This document shows positions 7,118-26,275 of a stretch of DNA of 33,964 nt, in pieces. The translations under genes were made by a program, and so were the position numbers. Within the stretch, counting starts at the first letter, position 1, and each line of letters begins with the position of its first letter. Source of the stretch: Escherichia coli (GTDB taxonomy: Bacteria > Pseudomonadota > Gammaproteobacteria > Enterobacterales > Enterobacteriaceae). The stretch lies in NCBI RefSeq assembly GCF_003334385.1, contig NZ_QOWN01000048.1; one strand, 5' to 3'. The notes beneath the pieces are model-generated. The model was not told the origin of the DNA and did no database searches. It saw only the letters and a list, made by a program, of their open reading frames with translations.

Positions 7118-9544
7118 ATGTCCAAAAATGAACGAATGGTGGGCATCAGCCGCAGAACACTCGTTAAATCTACCGCGATAGGTTCTCTGGCGCTGGCTGC
7201 AGGCGGTTTTTCTTTGCCGTTTACCCTGCGCAATGCAGCAGCAGCGGTACAACAGGCCCGCGAAAAAGTGGTCTGGGGTGCCTGTTCCGTCAACTGTGGT
7301 AGCCGCTGTGCACTTCGTCTACATGTTAAAGATAATGAAGTGACCTGGGTGGAAACTGACAATACCGGCAGCGATGAGTACGGCAACCATCAGGTACGCG
7401 CCTGTTTGCGCGGTCGCTCCATCCGCCGGCGTATTAATCATCCCGATCGCTTGAATTACCCAATGAAACGCGTGGGCAAACGCGGCGAAGGCAAATTCGA
7501 ACGGATTAGCTGGGATGAAGCCCTGGATACTATCGCCAGTAGCCTGAAGAAAACCGTCGAACAATATGGCAATGAGGCTGTATATATTCAGTACTCTTCG
7601 GGGATCGTTGGCGGCAATATGACCCGCTCTTCGCCATCAGCCTCGGCGGTCAAACGCCTGATGAACTGCTACGGCGGTTCACTCAACCAGTATGGCTCCT
7701 ACAGCACTGCGCAAATTTCCTGTGCCATGCCCTACACCTACGGCAGTAATGATGGCAACAGCACCACGGATATTGAAAACAGCAAGCTGGTCGTGATGTT
7801 TGGTAACAACCCGGCAGAAACCCGCATGAGCGGTGGTGGCATCACTTATCTTCTTGAAAAAGCGCGCGAGAAATCGAACGCCAAAATGATTGTTATCGAT
7901 CCGCGATATACCGATACGGCTGCCGGTCGTGAAGACGAATGGCTCCCTATTCGCCCGGGCACCGATGCCGCGCTGGTTGCGGGTATTGCCTGGGTATTGA
8001 TTAACGAAAATCTCGTTGATCAACCTTTTCTCGATAAATACTGCGTCGGCTATGACGAAAAAACCTTACCCGCAGATGCACCCAAAAATGGTCACTATAA
8101 AGCCTATATTCTTGGTGAAGGTGACGATAAAACAGCGAAAACGCCGCAGTGGGCTTCGCAAATTACCGGTATCCCGGAGGACCGTATCATCAAACTGGCG
8201 CGTGAAATTGGCACAGCAAAACCCGCTTATATCTGCCAGGGCTGGGGGCCACAACGCCAGGCAAACGGCGAACTGACTGCACGCGCTATTGCTATGTTAC
8301 CTATTTTGACGGGCAATGTCGGCATCAGCGGCGGAAATAGTGGCGCGCGTGAATCGACCTATACCATTACCATAGAACGCCTGCCGGTGCTGGATAATCC
8401 GGTCAAAACGTCAATCTCCTGCTTCAGCTGGACAGATGCTATCGATCATGGTCCGCAAATGACGGCAATCCGCGACGGCGTCCGCGGCAAAGATAAACTG
8501 GATGTGCCCATTAAGTTCATCTGGAACTACGCGGGAAATACCCTCGTTAATCAGCATTCTGACATCAACAAAACGCATGAAATTCTGCAGGACGAATCGA
8601 AATGCGAAATGATTGTGGTCATCGAAAACTTTATGACCTCATCGGCAAAATATGCCGACATTCTGCTGCCAGACCTGATGACCGTTGAGCAGGAAGATAT
8701 TATTCCTAACGACTACGCCGGTAACATGGGATATCTCATTTTCCTCCAGCCTGTCACCAGCGAAAAATTCGAACGCAAACCGATTTACTGGATCCTGAGT
8801 GAAGTCGCGAAACGTCTTGGACCTGACGTCTATCAAAAGTTCACAGAAGGTCGCACGCAGGAACAATGGTTACAACATCTGTACGCCAAAATGCTTGCCA
8901 AAGATCCGGCGTTACCGTCTTACGACGAACTGAAAAAAATGGGTATCTATAAGCGTAAAGATCCCAATGGCCATTTTGTCGCCTACAAAGCATTTCGTGA
9001 CGACCCCGAGGCAAATCCACTTAAAACGCCTTCCGGTAAGATTGAAATTTATTCCAGCAGGCTGGCGGAAATTGCCCGTACCTGGGAACTGGAAAAAGAT
9101 GAAGTGATAAGCCCATTGCCAGTTTATGCCTCAACCTTTGAAGGCTGGAACTCCCCTGAACGTAGAACCTTCCCACTGCAACTGTTTGGTTTCCATTACA
9201 AATCCCGTACTCACTCGACCTACGGCAATATTGATCTCCTGAAGGCTGCCTGCCGTCAGGAGGTGTGGATCAACCCTATAGATGCGCAGAAACGTGGGAT
9301 TGCCAACGGCGATATGGTGCGGGTGTTTAACCATCGTGGCGAAGTTCGGCTACCAGCCAAAGTAACACCACGTATTCTCCCTGGAGTTAGCGCTATGGGC
9401 CAGGGAGCCTGGCACGAGGCCAATATGTCTGGCGATAAAATCGACCATGGCGGCTGTGTGAATACGCTAACCACTCTGCGCCCTTCACCACTGGCGAAGG
9501 GAAACCCGCAGCACACTAATCTGGTCGAGATCGAAAAAATATAA
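7118..9544 (+). CDS. ynfE: Tat-exported molybdopterin oxidoreductase catalytic subunit YnfE (DMSO/selenate reductase family)
   Basis: 808 aa with a twin-arginine signal (SRRTLVKSTAIGSLALAAGG), an N-terminal Cys cluster (CSVNCGSRCALR) and DmsA-like length. Confidence 0.85.
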   Translation: MSKNERMVGISRRTLVKSTAIGSLALAAGGFSLPFTLRNAAAAVQQAREKVVWGACSVNCGSRCALRLHVKDNEVTWVETDNTGSDEYGNHQVRACLRGRSIRRRINHPDRLNYPMKRVGKRGEGKFERISWDEALDTIASSLKKTVEQYGNEAVYIQYSSGIVGGNMTRSSPSASAVKRLMNCYGGSLNQYGSYSTAQISCAMPYTYGSNDGNSTTDIENSKLVVMFGNNPAETRMSGGGITYLLEKAREKSNAKMIVIDPRYTDTAAGREDEWLPIRPGTDAALVAGIAWVLINENLVDQPFLDKYCVGYDEKTLPADAPKNGHYKAYILGEGDDKTAKTPQWASQITGIPEDRIIKLAREIGTAKPAYICQGWGPQRQANGELTARAIAMLPILTGNVGISGGNSGARESTYTITIERLPVLDNPVKTSISCFSWTDAIDHGPQMTAIRDGVRGKDKLDVPIKFIWNYAGNTLVNQHSDINKTHEILQDESKCEMIVVIENFMTSSAKYADILLPDLMTVEQEDIIPNDYAGNMGYLIFLQPVTSEKFERKPIYWILSEVAKRLGPDVYQKFTEGRTQEQWLQHLYAKMLAKDPALPSYDELKKMGIYKRKDPNGHFVAYKAFRDDPEANPLKTPSGKIEIYSSRLAEIARTWELEKDEVISPLPVYASTFEGWNSPERRTFPLQLFGFHYKSRTHSTYGNIDLLKAACRQEVWINPIDAQKRGIANGDMVRVFNHRGEVRLPAKVTPRILPGVSAMGQGAWHEANMSGDKIDHGGCVNTLTTLRPSPLAKGNPQHTNLVEIEKI

Positions 9545-9601
9545 CCCACGACAACCATAAATTCTGGCATGACATTTTGTTTGAAAAGCAATAAGTGAGT
9601 A

Positions 9602-16549: not shown

Positions 16550-19500
16550 TTAATCCACTCCCACTTTTTTGTTGTACTCGCGGTTAAAGCGATCCACGGC
16601 AACCTTCATATCCCGCTCTACCGATTTCACCATCGCCGCCTGCTGCGCCAGACTGAGAGAACTGTCGGCATAAATGGCATCGCGCTGTTTGCGCAAATCC
16701 TTCAGTCTCTTCCGGGTATCCTGCATAAGCCCGTTCATCAACAATTTTCCGTTGTTCTCGTCAATGAACGCCGTTCTTTCTGCACCGGTCAGACTCTTCA
16801 GCTCTGCGTGATACTGCGCAACCTCTGTCATCCGGTCGTACATCTTCTGCTGGTCTGCATACGGCATCACCTCACCCGAAATTTTCCCCAGGAAGGGCAC
16901 CTGCTGCTCCGGTATATCAATACCGTTCAGCGATTTCACCGCCGCATCTGTGGTTTTGGAAATGAAGCGCCCTGTCCCTCCGGAGATATAGTCAATCCAG
17001 AATTTCAGCGATTCCGGTGTGATATCCACCGCGCCGGGACGATACTGGCTGCCACCTGAGAACGCATTCAGCCAGGATGCAAACGCCTTGTACGCCTCAG
17101 GCGTTGAACGTCTGCCCAGCTGGCTGTCCGGTTTCGGTGTGCCAAATGGCATGTTCTCCTGGTAAATCTGCGCCCCCATGAAGTTTTCATTCATGGCAAG
17201 GTTCGCAAACGGACGCAGAATGGTCGGCGCTGCATTTTTCAGCAATGCCCCGGACAGTGTTTCCGACGTTTCACTGCCCACAGGACTGAATGCCCCCAGG
17301 ATACCACCGACAACATTACCGGCAGCACGTGAAGCAGTCAGGTCGCCCGCTGCCACACCTTCAGCAGTATGCCCGAGCAGGAAGAAAACGTTGTACCCGT
17401 AAGGCAGAGGAATACTCCAGTACTCTCCGGCCTTGCCCCCGAACACCGATTTCATAATGACGAGGTTACGCTCTTTCACATGAGACGGCACCTTGTCATA
17501 CCAGTTAACCCCGTCATCATCCTCCCCCGCAACACTGCGGTTAAGCGAGCCAAGCAGATAACCCGCTCCCACAGCTGCAAGCGCGATTTTCTGCGGTACA
17601 TTGAGATTCTTCCAGCGAAGGCGCTCCGGTAACGGCCCGTCGCCATTAAGATGTCCGAGCGTTCTCACCAGGTTTGCGGTCCCCTGAATGCTGGCGTTGG
17701 CAAACATATACAGCGAGTTCATCAGCGCTCCCTGCTCACCACGACGGTTAAAGTTCACCGTCATGTTTTTGGCAAGAGATGCCGCCTGCTGGCGTGACAA
17801 ACCGGCATCACGGGCGTGTTTATAGGCAGAAAGACGCAGAGCGTTTTCAACCGCGCCGTTGGCATCCTCGACCAGGTTCAGGAACGAATGCCATGCACCG
17901 ATACTCTGGCCTTTCCATCCTCCCTTCGCCAGCGATACAAGGCGATCCATTTCCTTCTGCTGGCCTTCAAGGTCACCCATGTTAAACCAGCCGGTTTTAC
18001 CTCCATCCTCAACAAACTCTTTCCACACCTTCTGCCACTGCGCACCGTTGCCCGTGAGGGTTTTACCACGCAGACTGGCGTATACGGCAGACATGGCAGA
18101 CCGGCTGTCTTTCACCACAGCCAGGGCGGATAAGTTATCCTGCCCTTTCAGTTTACCGTCGCTCCTTCCCTGCTCAGCCTTCAGGTTCATCACCGCCGTC
18201 TGCACGTCACGGATGAAGTTACTGACCAGAAATTCCGGGTTATACGACGTGTTCACCGTTGCCAGGAAACGGTTAACTTTCCCCAGCGTACGGATTACGG
18301 CGTTACTGGTTTCCGGCCCCATGTTCTTCATCGCACGCATCAGGCGCGGGTCATGGAGTTTGATGTAGTAAGTTTTGCCGTCCTTTTTGGTGGTGAAGTA
18401 GCGATCCGCCATCATTGCCATAGGCACCGGACGTTCAACAACTTCGCGACGGGTTTCGCCGGTTTCCGGATCAACACGCTCTGCAATCGCCCGCATGGTG
18501 TCCGGTTTGTCATCAGTGAATACCTGCCAGTAATCCTTATCGGGATTATCCTGCACCAGTTTCAGGAAGGCGTTACCCACTTCGTTTTTGCGATTGCGGA
18601 TCAGCGATTCGCTCAAATCCTGTATCGCCTGAGTGGAAGGAGACTGTGCGCGGGATGCACGCCCCATGGCCTGCCTGCTTTCACGTCCGCCGATGGTGAA
18701 GCCCTTACCTGTACGGGGCAGTGACACCACACCGTCAACATCCTGACCTTTCAGGGGAACGTAGTAACGGTAGGCGTTCTGCCAGGCATCCACCACACCG
18801 CTCTCTTCCAGTCCGGCCTCACGGATAAGCTCACGGCGACGGGCCAGCATATCGTCAACAATCCCTGCCAGACGGTCATACTGTGCCTGTTTGCCACTGT
18901 TACGCACACGCTGCATGATTTCCGCCGCTTCCGCGTTGGTCATCCCCGAACCGCCGTCCGGCATTTTCGGGTTGATTTTCGCGATATGCGCGTTACGTTC
19001 CGGCGCGTGACGGGCGTAGAGGTACTCATCCAGATCGGCCTGCGCAATTTTGTAGTCCGCCAGTAATTTAGCCAGTGGCTGAACGTAGCGCTCCTTCATC
19101 ACGTTCAGGTCGTTTTCCGCCTTCCCGTGGAAGAGTTCTTCCGCCATATAAGCGTTGTTACTGTCGTCTATTTTTCCGCCAGTTTTACGGATATTCTCCT
19201 GAACAGCTTTCAGCACCTGGAATTTATCCTGCATCTGGCGCACAAAACGCGATGCAATTGTCTCTTCCGGTGTCAGACTGCTGGTACGGGAGTAATACGG
19301 CCCCTTGCGAATATCTTCAGGATAGAGTATTTTATCTACAGAGCCGCGATAAGAACGCTCCTCTTTGGGCAATTGGAGCCCACTGTACTGAGGGTTATCG
19401 CGGCTTAATTTCTCCTTCCGGTAAAGCGTTAATCCAGCCATTTCCATACTTTTCAGCTTTTTCCCGTTTTCCGTACCGTAAACAGATGCCACCTTGTTAA

Positions 19501-22500
19501 TTTCCAGACGTTTATCTGTCGCCTTCATATGCACTGCCGAGACGACCGGATCACCATTTTTATCCACAGCATCAAGCAGCATCACAACCGCATTTCTTTC
19601 TGTCGCGGAACGGTAAATTGCATCCGGATTGTGCATCAGTTCCGGAAGTCTCTCGATAACATCCATTGGCACCACATGTTTCACGCCATTGGTAGCCTTC
19701 CGCACAGTGTCGCGGGAGATAACCAGCGGCAAATCTGGTGCGCCAAGGTGGCGCAATACCGGCGGCGTACGCCCGATGTTTGCAGTCATTGCACCAGAAC
19801 GTAACGACTTCATCATTCTGGCAAGGTCATCACGATAACGCTCGCCCTCACCTTCCGGCACTTTGAACGGATCAGGCTTACCGCTACGGGAGTACTGAGA
19901 CGATGCGCCAGCGCCATCCTCACGCGGCGTGTAACCTTCCCGCACACGCTGGCCTAACGTGCGAATAGTTTCGCGAACAAGTCTGATATCGTTCAGCTCT
20001 GTCGGCTTCAGTAACCCCGTGCGACGCAGTACCCCTTTGACCAGGGCAACAACACGCTCCCACGCCGCCACAAATTTATTCGGCTGTTTCTCCGCCATAT
20101 GTGCCAGAAATTCACCTGCCTGCACTTCCGGTGATTCCTTACCATAAGACGCATCAACCTTACGCCAGGCGTCACGGATGGTGGCGTTATCACTGTCACG
20201 GGTTTTCAGTACGGTCTTAATAATCGTCTGATATTCCGCTGGCGTGACTACATGCTCCATTGCATGGTGAATAATCTCGTGACGTAACTTCTCGCGAACG
20301 GTCCGCCCGTCAGGGATGTTATCCGCCACCAGGACAATTTCACGTTTATCCGGACGATAGAACGCATGCACCCTGCCGTAACCGTCGAACGATTCACCCG
20401 CCAGCGCTTCAGCCTCTTTCTGTGACTTCACCACGCGGACCTTCAGGTCACTGTCCTTAATGCCACTCATCACGCCACGGGCAACCGCTTCAACCTGCGG
20501 GACCGGGCTGCCTTTGGCTTCCGCACTGCGGTTAACATCCGAAATGAGATTGCCTTCAGGTGTGCGGGTCACGCCCTTACGGGAATAAAACGCAACGCCC
20601 TTGTCCGTCTTACGGGTTTTCAGCGTACTGAACAGGTGATCGAATGCATCACGAATACCGCCATCCAGTTCCGCATTCGTCGGATAAGCCCAGGTGTTAT
20701 CTGTGTTGTGCTCAGGTGCCTTACGGATATTGACCAGATAATCATTCTCCACGCCAGCCGTACGCGCTTTATCCTGAACATAACGCTCAAAGGCACGCGC
20801 CGCCATTTCAACATCCGTTGACCAGTACGGTTTTGAGCGCACCTCATCGAGAAGCGCTGAACGACGCGGCATGTCACTGCTGTTGATCGCTTTCATCACG
20901 CCTTTAAACGCGTCGTAAACCTCCTGACGTACCGGATATTCCGCATCAACATATCTGCCGTCTTTAAATACGCGCCCGGCACGTTGTGCTTCCGTCATAT
21001 AGTCGCCACCTGACGTGATCTTCCCGTCAGTGGAAACATCATAACGACCAAAATAATTATCCAGTGAATGGAACCATTCGTGGGCCAGCGCCCCCGGTCC
21101 GTTACCTTTTGTCAGGTTGATTGCCACCTCACCCGGCTCATAGTGTGCCGCCGCCTTACCCTTACCACGGGCACCAAAAGCAAGCCCAAGACGACCATTC
21201 AGGGAAAGCGCTTTTGTCGGAACGTTCAGCACGTCAGCCAGGTCATGCAGCGAGTCATAAGCCCGGTTCAAATCAGCCTGACGACGCGGACCTTCCACAT
21301 AATTACCAAACTGCACACCACGGAAACCAAACGCATCACTGAACTGCTCCGGCGAAACATCCCCTTTGCGGCGTTCTGGTCCGGTGCGGTCGCGGTTAGT
21401 GGCGTTACGCTGCTCCTCACGCGAAATCTCCCGCATCTCCTTCACATGACGAACAAGCTCATCACGATGTGAATCAATGTACTTACGCGCATCACTGGCT
21501 GACTTAAAACCACCTCTCACCCGCATTTTGTTTTTGCCGTAAGCGATAAAAATATCGCCACTACGGGTATTCCGGTAAACGTCAAAGCTGATTTTGTCAT
21601 CTGGTGACGGTGCTGTTTTTTCATCACCTTTCGCCCGTGACTTTTCCTCCTGCTCTGCAAACCAGGCTTTCGCCTTTGTCAGTAATTCATCCCTGCTTTC
21701 CGAGAAAAAGAGGTTACTCCCCTTATTGTCCTTATTGCGCAGTGAATAAAGTTTCTGTGGCGGATCGTAACGCTTCCCTCCGGCCGCCTGATACACACCG
21801 GATACCACCCGATAAGCAGAAGCCTTGTCCATCTGTGAGGGTGGCAGAGTGCGTAACAGTTGCCAGGTATCCGCGTAACGGGAGGGCATTCTGCCTTCCA
21901 TCCATTCTGCGAGGCGTTTCGCGCTGACCGTTCCGTTCAGCATTTCCGATACACTGTGTCGTACTTTTTTTACGCTCTCCCCCCAGCCAGCCGTATTGTG
22001 TTTCGTCTTCGCCGGAATATCGCTACGATACAGCGCTATCATTGCCAGGGTGTCAGCATCAGCCCCTTCGCTCGCCAGTTTTGCGTAGTCCGGTTTCGGG
22101 AACAGTTTGCTCAGCGGCTGCGTGGCATAATCCCTGTCTTCCAGCGTTTTACCCAGTGTTTCAGCAAGCTGTGCATAACGGTGTTTGGCTGCCCCTTTAA
22201 TTTCCTCGCCAAAGTCTTCAATTTTTTTGCCCCTGACTTCACCTCCGCGCACAGTAGCTTCCCTGTCAGTAGAGACAGTTGTTTCAGATTCAGGTGCGAT
22301 TGTCTCAGGCTGCGGGATGTCACGATTTCCTCCGGCCTGTCGACGTACTTCTGCCTGCTGTGCGAGCTCAGGCAATGAGTTACGAACAGTTCGGGGAAGC
22401 TGATCAGGCTGAGGCATACGGACATTGTGTGTAATGTCCGGAGCCGGTAGACCTTCACGTACCAGCGCTGTGGCGTTCTGCTCATCCGGTGACGGCAGAC

Positions 22501-24928
22501 CACGACGAACTGTTTCGCCCTCCAGTATTTCCCCCTGGCGACCAGCGGCATTTTCCGGTGCCTGCGCACGTCCTTTCTGGAAACTCTGGCCCTTCACCTC
22601 ACCGGTTGTGGTAAAACGACCACCACGTCCGGCCTGATTTTCATCCGGCGTACGCGCTACTTCTCCCGGTAACGGATATCCCTGTCCGGGATGAATATCG
22701 CCGGGAGCGGGAAGGCGTGGACGCTCAGTTAACTCCTGTGCTGTCGGACCGGCATCACCTTCAGCCATCTGGGAACGCACCAGTTCTTCCGCCGTCGGCG
22801 CGTTGCCACGGGCAAGACGGGCCTGCACTTCTGTATCATCCCCCGTAAAACCACGGAATCGCGGGTCACGCATGAACGCGGGCTGTTCCATCGGATCAGC
22901 ATCAGTAATACGCTCTCCGTCAGCCAGAGTGTTAATGGTCTCCGTTGCCACATCTTCAGAGAACGCAGGATTATCCATTTCAACGGCATACTGATTCTCG
23001 CCTTTCTTCACTACGGACGGTTTCAGGCCGGTGGCGCTGGCATTGCGGAAAACGTCGCTCCCCAGAGCACTTTTTTCATCCGTGAAATAACGGTTGTCCG
23101 GACGCACCTTTTCAATGCGTTCTGCTGGTCTGGACGCACCACTCCCGTTAATTTCAATACGAACTTCATCCGGATCGCGGAACCGCACCGTCGGGTAAAT
23201 ACTCCCGTCGCCATCATCCGCATTTTCCGGCTGTGGCTGTGCCTCCGGTCTGGCCTCCTGCTGAGGGCGAAGCACATCACGGATAGCCTGTAACTGCTGC
23301 TCTTCAGTATCAGTACGCCCTTCCTTCAGGCTGAGTTTTCGGTATTCCTCAAGCAGTTCAGGGCGCGGCTTCGCCTTCAGCTCATCCATCACCGCCTGTC
23401 GCTTCGCCTGTTCATCCAGTTCATTTAACAGCTGGCTGGCGGCTTCCCGGCGATGAACGGCAGACGTGTCTCCCTCAGGTGCCATATCCGCATCAGCATA
23501 CTGTTCCAGAAGTTGCTCGCGATTCATGCCCTGCATGGATTCGCGATGCTGTGCCACCGGATCAGCCGGTTCGGGTTGCGGGGCTGCTTCACCCTGCTGT
23601 ACGACTTCAGCCTCACGCATGGCGGTTTCTTCTGCGGCCTGACGTTTTCCACGATATCCGGCAACCGCACCGAACGGTGCGCCCATCGCAGCACCAAGGG
23701 CTGCACCTTCGATCGTTGCGTCAGCCACGCCCTCCCCCGGTGACACATCCATTCCGGCGGTCTCACGCAATGCCGTGTTTTCCTGATAGCGTGAATAGCC
23801 ACCCTGCGCCGCATTAATCGTCCCCTGTTCCGTGGCATTTCTGACAATGCCGCTTTTAACGGTCTTCGCCGTGCCCCGCATCGCCAGATTAAACAACTGA
23901 GCATCGCCCAGTTTTGCCGCCATGGCATTCACAGCCAGCAATTCAGGATCGGTTGCCAGCTGCGCGCGCACCTCATCGGCAACACGCTCTTTTGCCAGGT
24001 CCATTTTCTGGCGATCAGTAAGCTGTGCGTGCTGTGGATCTGCATCAATTGACAAAAACGTCTGCTGAAATTTCGGTGACTGCGCCAGCTCAGCGTAATC
24101 CGCATTAAGAACAGCATCTGCTGCCGACATTGCACTCTGCCCCTGTGCACTGGCTGTGGAATGGGTGATCAGGCCCGCATGGAAGAAATCCGTCATTTTT
24201 TTATCGACAGCTTCTGCTGCCAGTGCCGTGGCTCTTTCCGGCTGCACTCCTGCCGCGATGTATTTTTTCTCCAGCCCGGCGGTCAGCGTTCTTTTCAGTG
24301 CGACCTGTCCCACCTTTCTAACCACACCGCCAGCAACCAGATCAGGTACAAGCGCACCAATCAGGTTTACACCCTTCGTCAGCAAGACCGCAGAATCATC
24401 ATAGCCTTCACTCATTGGCGTGTTCAGCGCACGAACAGCACCCGGCGACATCTGATCTGTCAGCCATTCATCCGAGGCTTTGGCACCATCACTGACTGCC
24501 TTGCCTGTGGCCTTCAGACCTTTACCGACAGTATCAGTCACCGCGTTTTTCCCTGTTCCATCGGGAATGTTTTTAATCGCATCTCCAACAGAAGGTGGTG
24601 CGCCCAGTTCCTTTTGCGTGGAGGAAGGCGGCATGTAAACATCCGTCATGAAAGACGACAACCCGGCAAGCGTTTTTACAGGATTATTTACAAGTGCATC
24701 ACCGAGTCCACGGGCCATTTCCCCTGTTCCCCGGACGGACTGGGCGAAACCTTTACCCATTGTTGGCAATACATCGCCCAGGCTGAACGACGTGCTGTGA
24801 TCAACAGCGTTCTCCGGGTTGTTGAAAAAATCCTGCCAGTAATTTTCTCCCGGCTGCTTAATGTTCAGACTGCTGCGGTTCTGGTTACCCAATTGCGCTT
24901 CAGGGCGCTGCTCATCTGAAAAAGCCAT
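16550..24928 (-). CDS. Giant multidomain phage protein (2792 aa) with two zincin-like HExxH motifs; putative virion-associated 'polyvalent' injected protein
   Basis: Uninterrupted 8379-nt ORF. HEWFH at residues 1283-1287 (nt 21068-21082) and HEIIHH at 1550-1555 (nt 20267-20281). The N-terminal ~1000 residues are A/G/Q/E/P-rich low complexity. SD GGAG 6 nt upstream of the ATG. It is the last gene of a co-directional operon of small structural-type proteins. Confidence 0.75.
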   Translation of the reverse strand: MAFSDEQRPEAQLGNQNRSSLNIKQPGENYWQDFFNNPENAVDHSTSFSLGDVLPTMGKGFAQSVRGTGEMARGLGDALVNNPVKTLAGLSSFMTDVYMPPSSTQKELGAPPSVGDAIKNIPDGTGKNAVTDTVGKGLKATGKAVSDGAKASDEWLTDQMSPGAVRALNTPMSEGYDDSAVLLTKGVNLIGALVPDLVAGGVVRKVGQVALKRTLTAGLEKKYIAAGVQPERATALAAEAVDKKMTDFFHAGLITHSTASAQGQSAMSAADAVLNADYAELAQSPKFQQTFLSIDADPQHAQLTDRQKMDLAKERVADEVRAQLATDPELLAVNAMAAKLGDAQLFNLAMRGTAKTVKSGIVRNATEQGTINAAQGGYSRYQENTALRETAGMDVSPGEGVADATIEGAALGAAMGAPFGAVAGYRGKRQAAEETAMREAEVVQQGEAAPQPEPADPVAQHRESMQGMNREQLLEQYADADMAPEGDTSAVHRREAASQLLNELDEQAKRQAVMDELKAKPRPELLEEYRKLSLKEGRTDTEEQQLQAIRDVLRPQQEARPEAQPQPENADDGDGSIYPTVRFRDPDEVRIEINGSGASRPAERIEKVRPDNRYFTDEKSALGSDVFRNASATGLKPSVVKKGENQYAVEMDNPAFSEDVATETINTLADGERITDADPMEQPAFMRDPRFRGFTGDDTEVQARLARGNAPTAEELVRSQMAEGDAGPTAQELTERPRLPAPGDIHPGQGYPLPGEVARTPDENQAGRGGRFTTTGEVKGQSFQKGRAQAPENAAGRQGEILEGETVRRGLPSPDEQNATALVREGLPAPDITHNVRMPQPDQLPRTVRNSLPELAQQAEVRRQAGGNRDIPQPETIAPESETTVSTDREATVRGGEVRGKKIEDFGEEIKGAAKHRYAQLAETLGKTLEDRDYATQPLSKLFPKPDYAKLASEGADADTLAMIALYRSDIPAKTKHNTAGWGESVKKVRHSVSEMLNGTVSAKRLAEWMEGRMPSRYADTWQLLRTLPPSQMDKASAYRVVSGVYQAAGGKRYDPPQKLYSLRNKDNKGSNLFFSESRDELLTKAKAWFAEQEEKSRAKGDEKTAPSPDDKISFDVYRNTRSGDIFIAYGKNKMRVRGGFKSASDARKYIDSHRDELVRHVKEMREISREEQRNATNRDRTGPERRKGDVSPEQFSDAFGFRGVQFGNYVEGPRRQADLNRAYDSLHDLADVLNVPTKALSLNGRLGLAFGARGKGKAAAHYEPGEVAINLTKGNGPGALAHEWFHSLDNYFGRYDVSTDGKITSGGDYMTEAQRAGRVFKDGRYVDAEYPVRQEVYDAFKGVMKAINSSDMPRRSALLDEVRSKPYWSTDVEMAARAFERYVQDKARTAGVENDYLVNIRKAPEHNTDNTWAYPTNAELDGGIRDAFDHLFSTLKTRKTDKGVAFYSRKGVTRTPEGNLISDVNRSAEAKGSPVPQVEAVARGVMSGIKDSDLKVRVVKSQKEAEALAGESFDGYGRVHAFYRPDKREIVLVADNIPDGRTVREKLRHEIIHHAMEHVVTPAEYQTIIKTVLKTRDSDNATIRDAWRKVDASYGKESPEVQAGEFLAHMAEKQPNKFVAAWERVVALVKGVLRRTGLLKPTELNDIRLVRETIRTLGQRVREGYTPREDGAGASSQYSRSGKPDPFKVPEGEGERYRDDLARMMKSLRSGAMTANIGRTPPVLRHLGAPDLPLVISRDTVRKATNGVKHVVPMDVIERLPELMHNPDAIYRSATERNAVVMLLDAVDKNGDPVVSAVHMKATDKRLEINKVASVYGTENGKKLKSMEMAGLTLYRKEKLSRDNPQYSGLQLPKEERSYRGSVDKILYPEDIRKGPYYSRTSSLTPEETIASRFVRQMQDKFQVLKAVQENIRKTGGKIDDSNNAYMAEELFHGKAENDLNVMKERYVQPLAKLLADYKIAQADLDEYLYARHAPERNAHIAKINPKMPDGGSGMTNAEAAEIMQRVRNSGKQAQYDRLAGIVDDMLARRRELIREAGLEESGVVDAWQNAYRYYVPLKGQDVDGVVSLPRTGKGFTIGGRESRQAMGRASRAQSPSTQAIQDLSESLIRNRKNEVGNAFLKLVQDNPDKDYWQVFTDDKPDTMRAIAERVDPETGETRREVVERPVPMAMMADRYFTTKKDGKTYYIKLHDPRLMRAMKNMGPETSNAVIRTLGKVNRFLATVNTSYNPEFLVSNFIRDVQTAVMNLKAEQGRSDGKLKGQDNLSALAVVKDSRSAMSAVYASLRGKTLTGNGAQWQKVWKEFVEDGGKTGWFNMGDLEGQQKEMDRLVSLAKGGWKGQSIGAWHSFLNLVEDANGAVENALRLSAYKHARDAGLSRQQAASLAKNMTVNFNRRGEQGALMNSLYMFANASIQGTANLVRTLGHLNGDGPLPERLRWKNLNVPQKIALAAVGAGYLLGSLNRSVAGEDDDGVNWYDKVPSHVKERNLVIMKSVFGGKAGEYWSIPLPYGYNVFFLLGHTAEGVAAGDLTASRAAGNVVGGILGAFSPVGSETSETLSGALLKNAAPTILRPFANLAMNENFMGAQIYQENMPFGTPKPDSQLGRRSTPEAYKAFASWLNAFSGGSQYRPGAVDITPESLKFWIDYISGGTGRFISKTTDAAVKSLNGIDIPEQQVPFLGKISGEVMPYADQQKMYDRMTEVAQYHAELKSLTGAERTAFIDENNGKLLMNGLMQDTRKRLKDLRKQRDAIYADSSLSLAQQAAMVKSVERDMKVAVDRFNREYNKKVGVD

Positions 24929-24940
24929 ACAGACTCCAGT

Positions 24941-24967
24941 AAAAAAAGCCCGACACGATGGTCGGGC
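24941..24967 (-). terminator. Rho-independent terminator/attenuator directly upstream of the giant ORF
   Basis: On the minus strand, GCCCGAC-CATCGT-GTCGGGC hairpin followed by UUUUUUU, lying between the stop of the 420-aa gene (25013) and the start of the giant gene (24928). Confidence 0.5.
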
Positions 24968-25012
24968 GTAAGTGAACGAGATTAACGGTGAGTGCGTTAC
25001 TGCCGCGTATTT

Positions 25013-26275
25013 TTACTTCATCCAGCCTTTGATCTTCTCGGCAGATGCGGAAGCGCTATAATCCAGCGCCTTTTCATGCTCTGCCTTTTTATCCCTGAGG
25101 TGATTCTGGTAATAAATTTCCACCTCCTTTTCACGACCAGGTTCCAGCAAAGCAGGCATATTGGCGGCAGTCGCTTTTACAAACTCCTGTTTAACCGGAT
25201 CGCCCGCCGCCCACGTCTGCCACTTCTGTAAAAGCTGTTGGGTTTTCTGTTGCTGAATTTTCTGTTGATGCGGTTGTGAACCAGTCGCAGCATAATATTC
25301 ATCCACCGCAGCCTGTGCATTACCGCCATTCTTGATCGCGTCCGCCGCTACGTTGCTGGCCCCCTTCTGAAGCTCTTTCAGAGAAAGTCCCTGCTGCTTC
25401 GGCATAAAATAACCATAATTTTTCGATATCTCTGCAAATTTGCTGCGATCCCTGACCTGAGCGATAGCCTTATCAACGGGTATCGCCAGCACGGTTTGAT
25501 CATCAGGGTGCGCACTGCCGTATTCTGTTACAGGTTTATGCGCGGTGGAGCCATCGCTGTATGTGAGATCAAGGCCAATAAGTACGTACCCTTCCTGCTG
25601 CGCCGGTACGATACTGCCAATCCTGGCCTCTTTTATCGTTTTTTCCCCGGTTGAATCAGGCATGCCAATACGCTGTTGTAGTTCCGGGGCAAACACGCCG
25701 GAAAGCACATCGAGATTTTCCGGGGTATTCAGCGAAGCAATCGCCCTGTCCGGCTTATCATCAAAGATTTTCTGCAGGTTGTTCACGGCCTGACCCGCTT
25801 TCGCAGCATAGCCTACCGTTGACATCATCTTAAGCGGATTGGCGTCCGATAATTTACCGAACAGATGAGAAGCCGCATCATGGTCACCCGCATCAATCGC
25901 TTTTCCCAGCGCCGCCATCACAGGCTGATCGCGCGCCAGCATATCGTTATACTCAAGCCGTCGCTGGTTGTATTTCTGCAACTGGAGTCGTTGCTGTTCC
26001 ATCCCCAGCGACGCATTCCGGTAATTCTGGTTGGCGTTAAACTCCCTTTCCTGCAGTGTGTAATTGCGGTCATCAACTTTGGCTCTGTAATCAAAGTTCC
26101 GCTGATCAACGTCTTTATTATGTTCAAACTGAGACTGCGCAAATTCAAAATCGCGCTCGTTATTTTTCTGTTGCTGAGCAAGCTGTGCTTCTCGCAAACC
26201 AAGCTCCTTACGACGGGTCATTGCCTGGTCAACAGTGCTGAATCCGGCAAGTAACCCCTGTGCAAATCCGCTCAT
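25013..26275 (-). CDS. Hypothetical phage protein (420 aa), Q/N/K-rich; putative virion/ejection protein
   Basis: Long ORF tightly packed in the co-directional block upstream of the giant gene. No recognised catalytic motif. Confidence 0.5.
   Translation of the reverse strand: MSGFAQGLLAGFSTVDQAMTRRKELGLREAQLAQQQKNNERDFEFAQSQFEHNKDVDQRNFDYRAKVDDRNYTLQEREFNANQNYRNASLGMEQQRLQLQKYNQRRLEYNDMLARDQPVMAALGKAIDAGDHDAASHLFGKLSDANPLKMMSTVGYAAKAGQAVNNLQKIFDDKPDRAIASLNTPENLDVLSGVFAPELQQRIGMPDSTGEKTIKEARIGSIVPAQQEGYVLIGLDLTYSDGSTAHKPVTEYGSAHPDDQTVLAIPVDKAIAQVRDRSKFAEISKNYGYFMPKQQGLSLKELQKGASNVAADAIKNGGNAQAAVDEYYAATGSQPHQQKIQQQKTQQLLQKWQTWAAGDPVKQEFVKATAANMPALLEPGREKEVEIYYQNHLRDKKAEHEKALDYSASASAEKIKGWMK

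Follow-up and report, generated by a model that had tools for sequence, protein, structure and literature searches.

The window, that is, the whole 33,964-nt stretch of Escherichia coli DNA analysed in this study, contains a prophage inserted at ynfG, with the host genes ynfE and ynfF located at 7118-12028. All large ORFs between 16550 and 33964 are on the minus strand, and this region is, as judged by sequence, the distal part of the late operon of a short-tailed Stx-type (Sepvirinae) lambdoid prophage. The whole query was approximately 90% identical to Oslovirus ArgO145 and PhiR12_3, and identity to 933W-type Traversvirus phages was approximately 94% over 83% of the query. The prophage of E. 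coli SCU-104 was 100% identical over 1.2 kb and 99.5% identical over 13311-33964. Features of the junction under study are listed in Table 1.

The last and largest gene of the late operon, 8.4 kb in length, is referred to below as the giant gene. Its LPD5/LPD1/MuF_C/LPD38 layout is that of the "polyvalent protein" architecture (PMC5512222). In a 2026 preprint on phage phi24B, the giant orthologue was detected in purified virions and was missing from the cryo-EM map "despite its abundance"; based on cryo-EM and proteomics, the authors proposed that it is an encapsidated ejection protein (10.64898/2026.04.10.717836). The first-pass annotation of this DNA had described the giant protein as injected, which agrees with these published proposals (polyvalent-protein domains and the phi24B preprint). 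It had also placed small-protein genes directly upstream; the neighbour is instead the gene for a 420-aa protein with an orthologue essential for tail assembly. Deletion analysis of Sp5 has shown that ORF79 and ORF80 are both essential and needed for tail formation (PMC5155283). The 420-aa gene has a GC content of 0.50-0.51, similar to that of its flanks, and no NCBIfam match was obtained for its product or for the Q-like protein of the SCU-104 prophage.

Table 1 Features of the junction ahead of the giant gene and further terminators upstream (window positions)
Feature	Coordinates	Strand	Remarks
Giant 2792-aa gene (phrog_616)	16550..24928	minus	domains LPD5, LPD1, MuF_C and LPD38; orthologous to Sp5 ORF80/ECs1242 and to the giant virion protein of phi24B
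Shine-Dalgarno GGAG of the giant gene	24934..24937	minus	5 nt 5′ of the ATG at 24928
U-tract (T7)	24941..24947	minus	no spacer after the stem
Terminator hairpin	24948..24967	minus	GCCCGAC 24967-24961, loop CATCGT 24960-24955, GTCGGGC 24954-24948
420-aa gene (phrog_601)	25013..26275	minus	orthologue of Sp5 ORF79/ECs1241
Strong co-oriented terminator	27677..27692	minus	CCCTGCTCCGGCAGGG + T6, d 42.9; between the 133-aa and 218-aa genes
Co-oriented terminator directly after lom	28536..28552	minus	d 21.6

The 24941-24967 element is situated in the 84-nt intergenic gap between the 420-aa gene and the giant gene and is co-oriented with both. The 420-aa gene ends with TAA (25015-25013), and the hairpin starts 45 nt past this stop; the U-run ends 12 nt ahead of the ATG (24928) of the 2792-aa ORF. 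A consensus terminator scan gave a stem of 7 bp, with 6 of the 7 pairs being G-C, and a loop of 6 nt. In a d'Aubenton-Carafa-type scan, in which the d score combines hairpin energy per length with a weighted T-tract and the usual cut-off is d>0, the element had a dG of -12.4 kcal/mol, a T-weight of 4.87 and d = 31.4, the second highest value in the whole window with both strands counted. The clean hairpin plus U-run reported at these positions by the first-pass annotation, immediately before the giant ORF, was thus confirmed to the nucleotide and assigned to the minus strand. Thirty dinucleotide-preserving shuffles of the window, scanned on both strands, gave on average 0.03 sites with d>=31 (2 observed) and 0.13 sites with d>=20 (4 observed). 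Plus-strand reading places A7 ahead of the hairpin and GTAAGTG behind it; since no T-run lies beyond it on that strand, the terminator would act on minus-strand transcription only. The 12 nt between the U-run and the ATG are too short for a promoter, and all transcription of the giant gene must therefore cross the terminator.

No second copy of the hairpin sequence was found within the window, and the end of a repeat or mobile element was ruled out because the hairpin is unique there. No Rfam family was detected at the site, either in a scan of the whole window at the gathering threshold or in a permissive scan of 24700-25300. Folding of the 91-nt junction revealed nothing beyond the hairpin (z -1.28, not significant); by this result, an additional mRNA structure sequestering the ribosome-binding site (RBS) was rejected.

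The close set of relatives comprised 46 IMG/VR loci, and 45 of them include the start of the giant gene; the remaining locus, L048, aligns with the giant protein from residue 186 onward only, and the sequence flanking it upstream is therefore not the junction. None of the 45 relatives had lost the hairpin, the T-run or GGAG, and all three were likewise present in the phage and E. coli records inspected. At pair 6 of the stem, the window type has A-U where the 933W type has G-C; across the close relatives, pair 1 is G-C, G.U or A-U and pair 7 is C-G or U.G, the loop is variable, and T-runs of 7, 8 and 9 nt occur. In an alignment of 10 sequences (A1), 97% of the cells pair, with changes on both sides in 3 of the 7 pairs. 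The A1 pairing score was reached by none of 500 shuffles, and slid registers dropped to 24-46% pairing. Between lineages, DNA homology is lost at the 3′ end of the 420-aa gene and in its 3′ UTR and is regained at the hairpin. With a GC-rich stem and a loop inside the usual ranges (approximately 5-14 bp and 3-8 nt), a U-run, a non-coding position past a stop codon and a structure kept in evolution, the 24941-24967 element is a Rho-independent terminator by every sequence-level criterion.

A general homologue search with the 420-aa protein returned close E. coli relatives only; distant relatives were obtained by an exhaustive representative search with the same protein followed by contig look-ups. 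An ORF79-like gene was present in all relatives found, with the protein from the distant ones being just 24-43% identical. In L052-L055, L057, L058, L059, L064, and L067, at most about 35 nt separate a co-oriented terminator from the downstream ATG of the giant gene. The hairpin is GCCCGG..CCGGGC with differing loops in L052/L053, L054, and L055, and GCCTCGC..GCGGGGC followed by T8 or T5 in L057 and L058. The stems are GCCCTGATCGG..CCGGTCGGGGC (dG -20) in L059, GCCGAGTTGCGCC..GCGCACCTCGGC (d 36) in L064, and GCCTCACCC..GGGTGGGGC (d 47) in L067; unrelated stems, beginning with GCCTCGC, GCCGAGTTGCGCC, GCCCTGATCGG and GCCTCACCC, thus occupy the same position. L056 has two terminators, located 150-220 nt 5′ of the giant gene. 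GGAG is also found in L052-L055, L057, and L058, and other purine-rich sequences precede the ATG in L059, L064, and L067.

By hand count, a co-oriented terminator was found in 11 of 11 gaps preceding the giant gene; the same loci have 14 further co-oriented gaps measuring 40 nt or more, and 5 of these contain one (one-sided Fisher p ~0.001, with lineages that are not fully independent). In L057, three opposite-strand genes, and in L058, a T5orf172 gene, are inserted 3′ of the ORF79 homologue, and the terminator still adjoins the giant gene in both. The most distant loci, L059, L064, and L067, have no moron genes upstream and keep the terminator. This position ahead of the giant gene, conserved far beyond sequence homology, is the sole unusual aspect of the element.

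Both upstream terminators in Table 1 lie at most 3.6 kb 5′ of the pre-giant terminator, and that at 27677..27692 is conserved in Stx2-86 and L052. The late unit of the SCU-104 prophage contains 13 co-oriented terminators with d>14, some of which come after the portal and major-capsid genes. With so many terminators in the same late unit, the earlier idea that the pre-giant terminator is a special divider was not upheld, and without processive antitermination no transcript could span the whole late operon. The Q gene and pR′ are outside the window and were deduced from the 99.5%-identical SCU-104 prophage. Upstream in that prophage, likewise outside the window, is a gene matching phrog_753, "anti-termination protein Q-like" (E 3e-68), and approximately 160 bp past it is a terminator with d 29, a candidate for tR′. 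The SCU-104 prophage thus has the order that marks such a late operon, a Q-family gene and then a proximal tR′-like terminator. Late genes of Stx phages are transcribed from pR′ through antitermination by Q (PMC7547250). Between the 27677 terminator and the pre-giant terminator, no convincing sigma-70 promoter was found, and promoter-like sites were not enriched in a consensus scan (10 found, 14.3 expected).

We consider it somewhat better than an even chance that this is a functional terminator within the late operon, serving as a Q-dependent gate or insulator that keeps the giant gene silent until late antitermination, and transcription of the giant gene probably requires an active phage anti-termination factor. 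With RNA polymerase unmodified by Q, the GC hairpin would form, release would occur at U7, and the RBS, 3 nt further on, would never be reached. In a lysogen, such polymerase might come from moron promoters (lom, hok) or from stray promoters. During lytic growth, polymerase loaded with Q at pR′ would pass the hairpin and transcribe the 8.4-kb gene, as it would likewise have to pass a dozen other terminators in the 37-kb late unit. The gate would keep the gene for a very large and possibly harmful virion or ejection protein off unless the late switch is on. The proposal of the first-pass annotation that giant-gene expression depends on antitermination stands to the extent that it follows naturally from a gap with no promoter and from the Q-like gene of the 99.5%-identical prophage. 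Read-through by Q-modified polymerase at this very site is inferred from the operon layout (13 co-oriented terminators) and the published pR′/Q behaviour of Stx phages; efficient termination of unmodified polymerase and insulation in lysogens as the selective reason are likewise presumed.

Published data bear on this gate in part. In uninduced EHEC Sakai, Hfq-CRAC reads over ECs1242 numbered 0-3342 in sense and 7138-73833 in antisense per sample (PMC4104026 Table S1A). Such a predominance of antisense reads agrees only weakly with low sense expression in lysogens, since what Hfq-CRAC reports is binding by Hfq and not transcript abundance. Term-seq and dRNA-seq data of EHEC Sakai have been deposited in GEO (GSE143631 and its companion, cited in PMC7547250); the literature found on ECs1241/ECs1242/L0121 and on O157 Term-seq yielded no transcript data for the junction. 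The need to block unmodified transcription at this point is less than obvious, since no convincing sigma-70 promoter was found between the 27677 terminator and the hairpin, and retention of the terminator in L059, L064, and L067, which have no upstream morons, fits a role in giant-gene dosage at least as well as insulation.

Such a role in dosage, in line with the reduced expression put forward by the first-pass annotation, would mean that even Q-modified polymerase stops in part at the hairpin, leaving less giant mRNA than mRNA of the upstream structural genes and avoiding an excess of the 2792-aa protein. An 8.4-kb gene is expensive to express, the terminator is tied to it in every lineage including those without upstream morons, and the giant gene comes last in a unit with 13 serial terminators, at which small leaks would sum to a gradient. 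Q-type antiterminators make RNA polymerase strongly resistant to hairpin-dependent terminators over tens of kilobases. Given such strong antitermination, the loss expected per site is small, and the "abundance" of the giant protein in phi24B virions, as worded in the preprint, does not suggest a low dose. We regard partial termination as unlikely, although it is the alternative to be taken most seriously. The description of the product as a low-copy effector found no support: besides this "abundance" in the phi24B virion, the Sp5 orthologue is essential for tail formation. Alternatively, the hairpin might serve RNA stability by shielding the 3′ end of the ORF79 message from exonucleases or the 5′ side of the giant message from RNase E. 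In favour of this, the hairpin is stable and has been kept through compensatory changes, and its position 15 nt 5′ of the Shine-Dalgarno sequence would bring it near the 5′ end of any processed giant mRNA. On the other hand, the U-tract, which is specific to termination and not needed by a stability hairpin, is kept in every lineage together with unrelated stems, and the junction fold (z -1.28) shows the hairpin alone. Furthermore, the hairpin cannot be a 3′ protector of ORF79 in L057 and L058 because the inserted genes place it far from ORF79, and a stability element is thus improbable.

Less probable still is a 3′ UTR-derived small RNA of the 420-aa gene, with a poly-U tail binding Hfq and termination as a secondary matter. 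EHEC prophages are rich in Hfq-bound sRNAs with Rho-independent terminators (PMC4104026), and a 45-nt 3′ UTR, the hairpin and U7 are present at the site; however, conservation within the junction is lowest in the 3′ UTR before the hairpin, which is replaced between lineages, Rfam gives no match at the site, and the ECs1241-ECs1242 junction has no sRNA listed in the supplement of Tree et al. The least credible explanation, to which we attach next to no weight, is that the element has no regulatory role, being a chance palindrome or part of the coding sequence of the giant ORF. The shuffles, together with conservation and covariation, exclude a chance palindrome. As to coding, the hairpin of 933W-type phages has at its 5′ edge an ATG that shares the reading frame of the giant ORF, and HM208303 annotates this start. 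The window lacks this ATG, and the reading frame is not maintained, with T-runs of 7, 8 or 9 nt among near-identical relatives; moreover, the hairpin ATG is not preceded by an RBS, whereas GGAG stands before the downstream ATG in the close and several of the distant relatives. An N-terminal coding extension through the hairpin was rejected on frame and T-run indels. In the phi24B record (L062, HM208303.1 49148), the giant ORF begins at the 5′ edge of the hairpin, 13 codons 5′ of the conserved Shine-Dalgarno-ATG, and this start is probably a mis-annotation.

Returning to the Q-dependent gate, its parts resemble known systems. The terminators of lambdoid Q operons (tR′ and downstream sites in lambda; pR′-tR′ in Stx phages, PMC7547250) also consist of a GC hairpin and a U-tract in one long late unit. 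They share as well, as seen in the near-identical prophage, a Q-like gene followed by a tR′-like terminator, and Q-dependent read-through is expected. Unlike tR′, the pre-giant terminator is not promoter-proximal, lying approximately 29 kb downstream (49,545 vs 20,568 in merged coordinates). In phage T7, the terminator T-phi is internal, located after the major capsid gene, where it separates highly expressed structural genes from the tail and internal-core (ejection) genes, and it is a precedent for stoichiometry set by partial termination. The pre-giant terminator is similarly an internal one, between structural genes and a downstream gene for a putative ejection protein. T-phi acts on T7 RNA polymerase with no antiterminator, whereas host polymerase and a Q-type switch would operate here, with partial termination as a possibility.

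Morons are described as promoter-gene-terminator cassettes, for example lom and bor (Juhala et al. 2000, as cited in PMC4104026). The terminators at 28552..28536 (after lom) and 27692..27677 fit this pattern, and relatives insert genes at the ORF79/giant junction. The pre-giant terminator differs in that the gene before it is a conserved, essential tail-assembly gene with ordinary GC content and no promoter was found. A moron cassette terminator was rejected on these grounds: the conserved, essential upstream gene, its flank-like GC (0.50-0.51) and the lack of a promoter signal. The pre-giant terminator follows ordinary lambdoid-phage logic, and its mechanism is not new. Our literature search found no prior description of this terminator site or of its conserved position.

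A stronger reading, possible but on balance doubtful, is that the arrangement of terminator, RBS and giant gene is an ancient and specifically selected checkpoint, kept alongside neighbouring proteins of just 24-43% identity, reassembled from unrelated stems and surviving insertions. The cause would be strict coupling of the ejection protein to late antitermination, the protein being toxic or costly in lysogens or its dose being set by leak-through, and a hairpin inside the 133-aa gene (described below) would be part of the same graded control. A giant essential virion protein of Stx-converting phages is thus expressed only by transcription past a strong terminator, and if the Q-dependent gate operates as proposed, its synthesis is tied to the same Q switch as the release of Shiga toxin. 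The pre-giant terminator offers a concrete element for probing or engineering late-gene dosage in medically important phages.

Several other observations were made in the region. Within the 133-aa gene (27746..28147; phrog_610, a conserved late gene), approximately 100 nt in, a terminator-like hairpin occurs at 28022-28043 on the minus strand. It consists of CGCCTGCC-TTAAAAAG-(G)CAGGCG followed by TTTTGCTTTG and codes for D-A-C-L-K-K-Q-A-F-C-F. Distant relatives have the motif D-A-I-R-N-R/G-V-A-F-L-F or E-A-L-L-S-G-R-A-S-L-F at this place, with stems CGCCATCC..GGGTGGCG or GAAGCCCTGC..GTAGGGCTTC and d up to 38. The amino acids therefore vary in pairs that preserve the RNA stem, and this hairpin is a possible intragenic attenuator. 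Between lom and the 133-aa gene is a gene of the Hok/Gef toxin family (28204-28344, minus strand). Directly 3′ of it, a strong palindrome, TGACGGGGAC..GTCCCCGTC (dG -19), was observed at 28167-28198 on the plus strand, and no sok/hok RNA was detected at the Hok/Gef gene in Rfam at the gathering threshold.

In the SCU-104 prophage (L050, 7766-9217, outside the window), 1.45 kb separate the Q-like gene from the nanS-p esterase gene, which is the place of stx in toxin phages. This interval has no annotated gene and contains four strong co-oriented terminators; two of the four share the stem GCCCCTCTCCGGAGGGGC, which lies in a repeated block of approximately 480 bp. In distant relatives, the stretch that joins the ORF79 homologue to the giant gene is an insertion hot spot, with a 53-aa ORF in L056 (6389-6891), the three opposite-strand genes in L057 (6323-9166) and the T5orf172/MUG113 gene in L058 (1478-2432). 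In L058, a T-less remnant hairpin, GCCCGGCGCACTGCCGGGC, is present directly after the ORF79 homologue. ECs1242 ranks 17th of all CDS in the Hfq-CRAC data of uninduced Sakai, with nearly all reads antisense, for example 26,613 antisense and 1,456 sense (PMC4104026 Table S1A), and these reads imply an abundant Hfq-bound antisense RNA within the 8.4-kb ECs1242.

Past the giant gene, the 12039-16399 region carries accessory cargo, including a Panacea-domain gene (15875..16399, minus strand), a pair of PAPS-reductase and IbrB-like genes (13931-15786, plus strand) as well as an AntA/AntB antirepressor gene. The phage end (attR) of ArgO145 comes immediately after the giant gene. Two Rfam matches to sRNA-Xcc1 were found at the prophage-host junction, at 12439-12527 and 12979-13064 on the plus strand, with 73 and 69 bits, above the gathering score. 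They are approximately 540 bp apart, inside a diverged tandem duplication of about 537 bp (12556-12836 vs 13093-13364) that takes in the 5′ portion of the antA-like antirepressor gene; a break in the BLAST match suggests that SCU-104 has one copy of the 537-bp unit.
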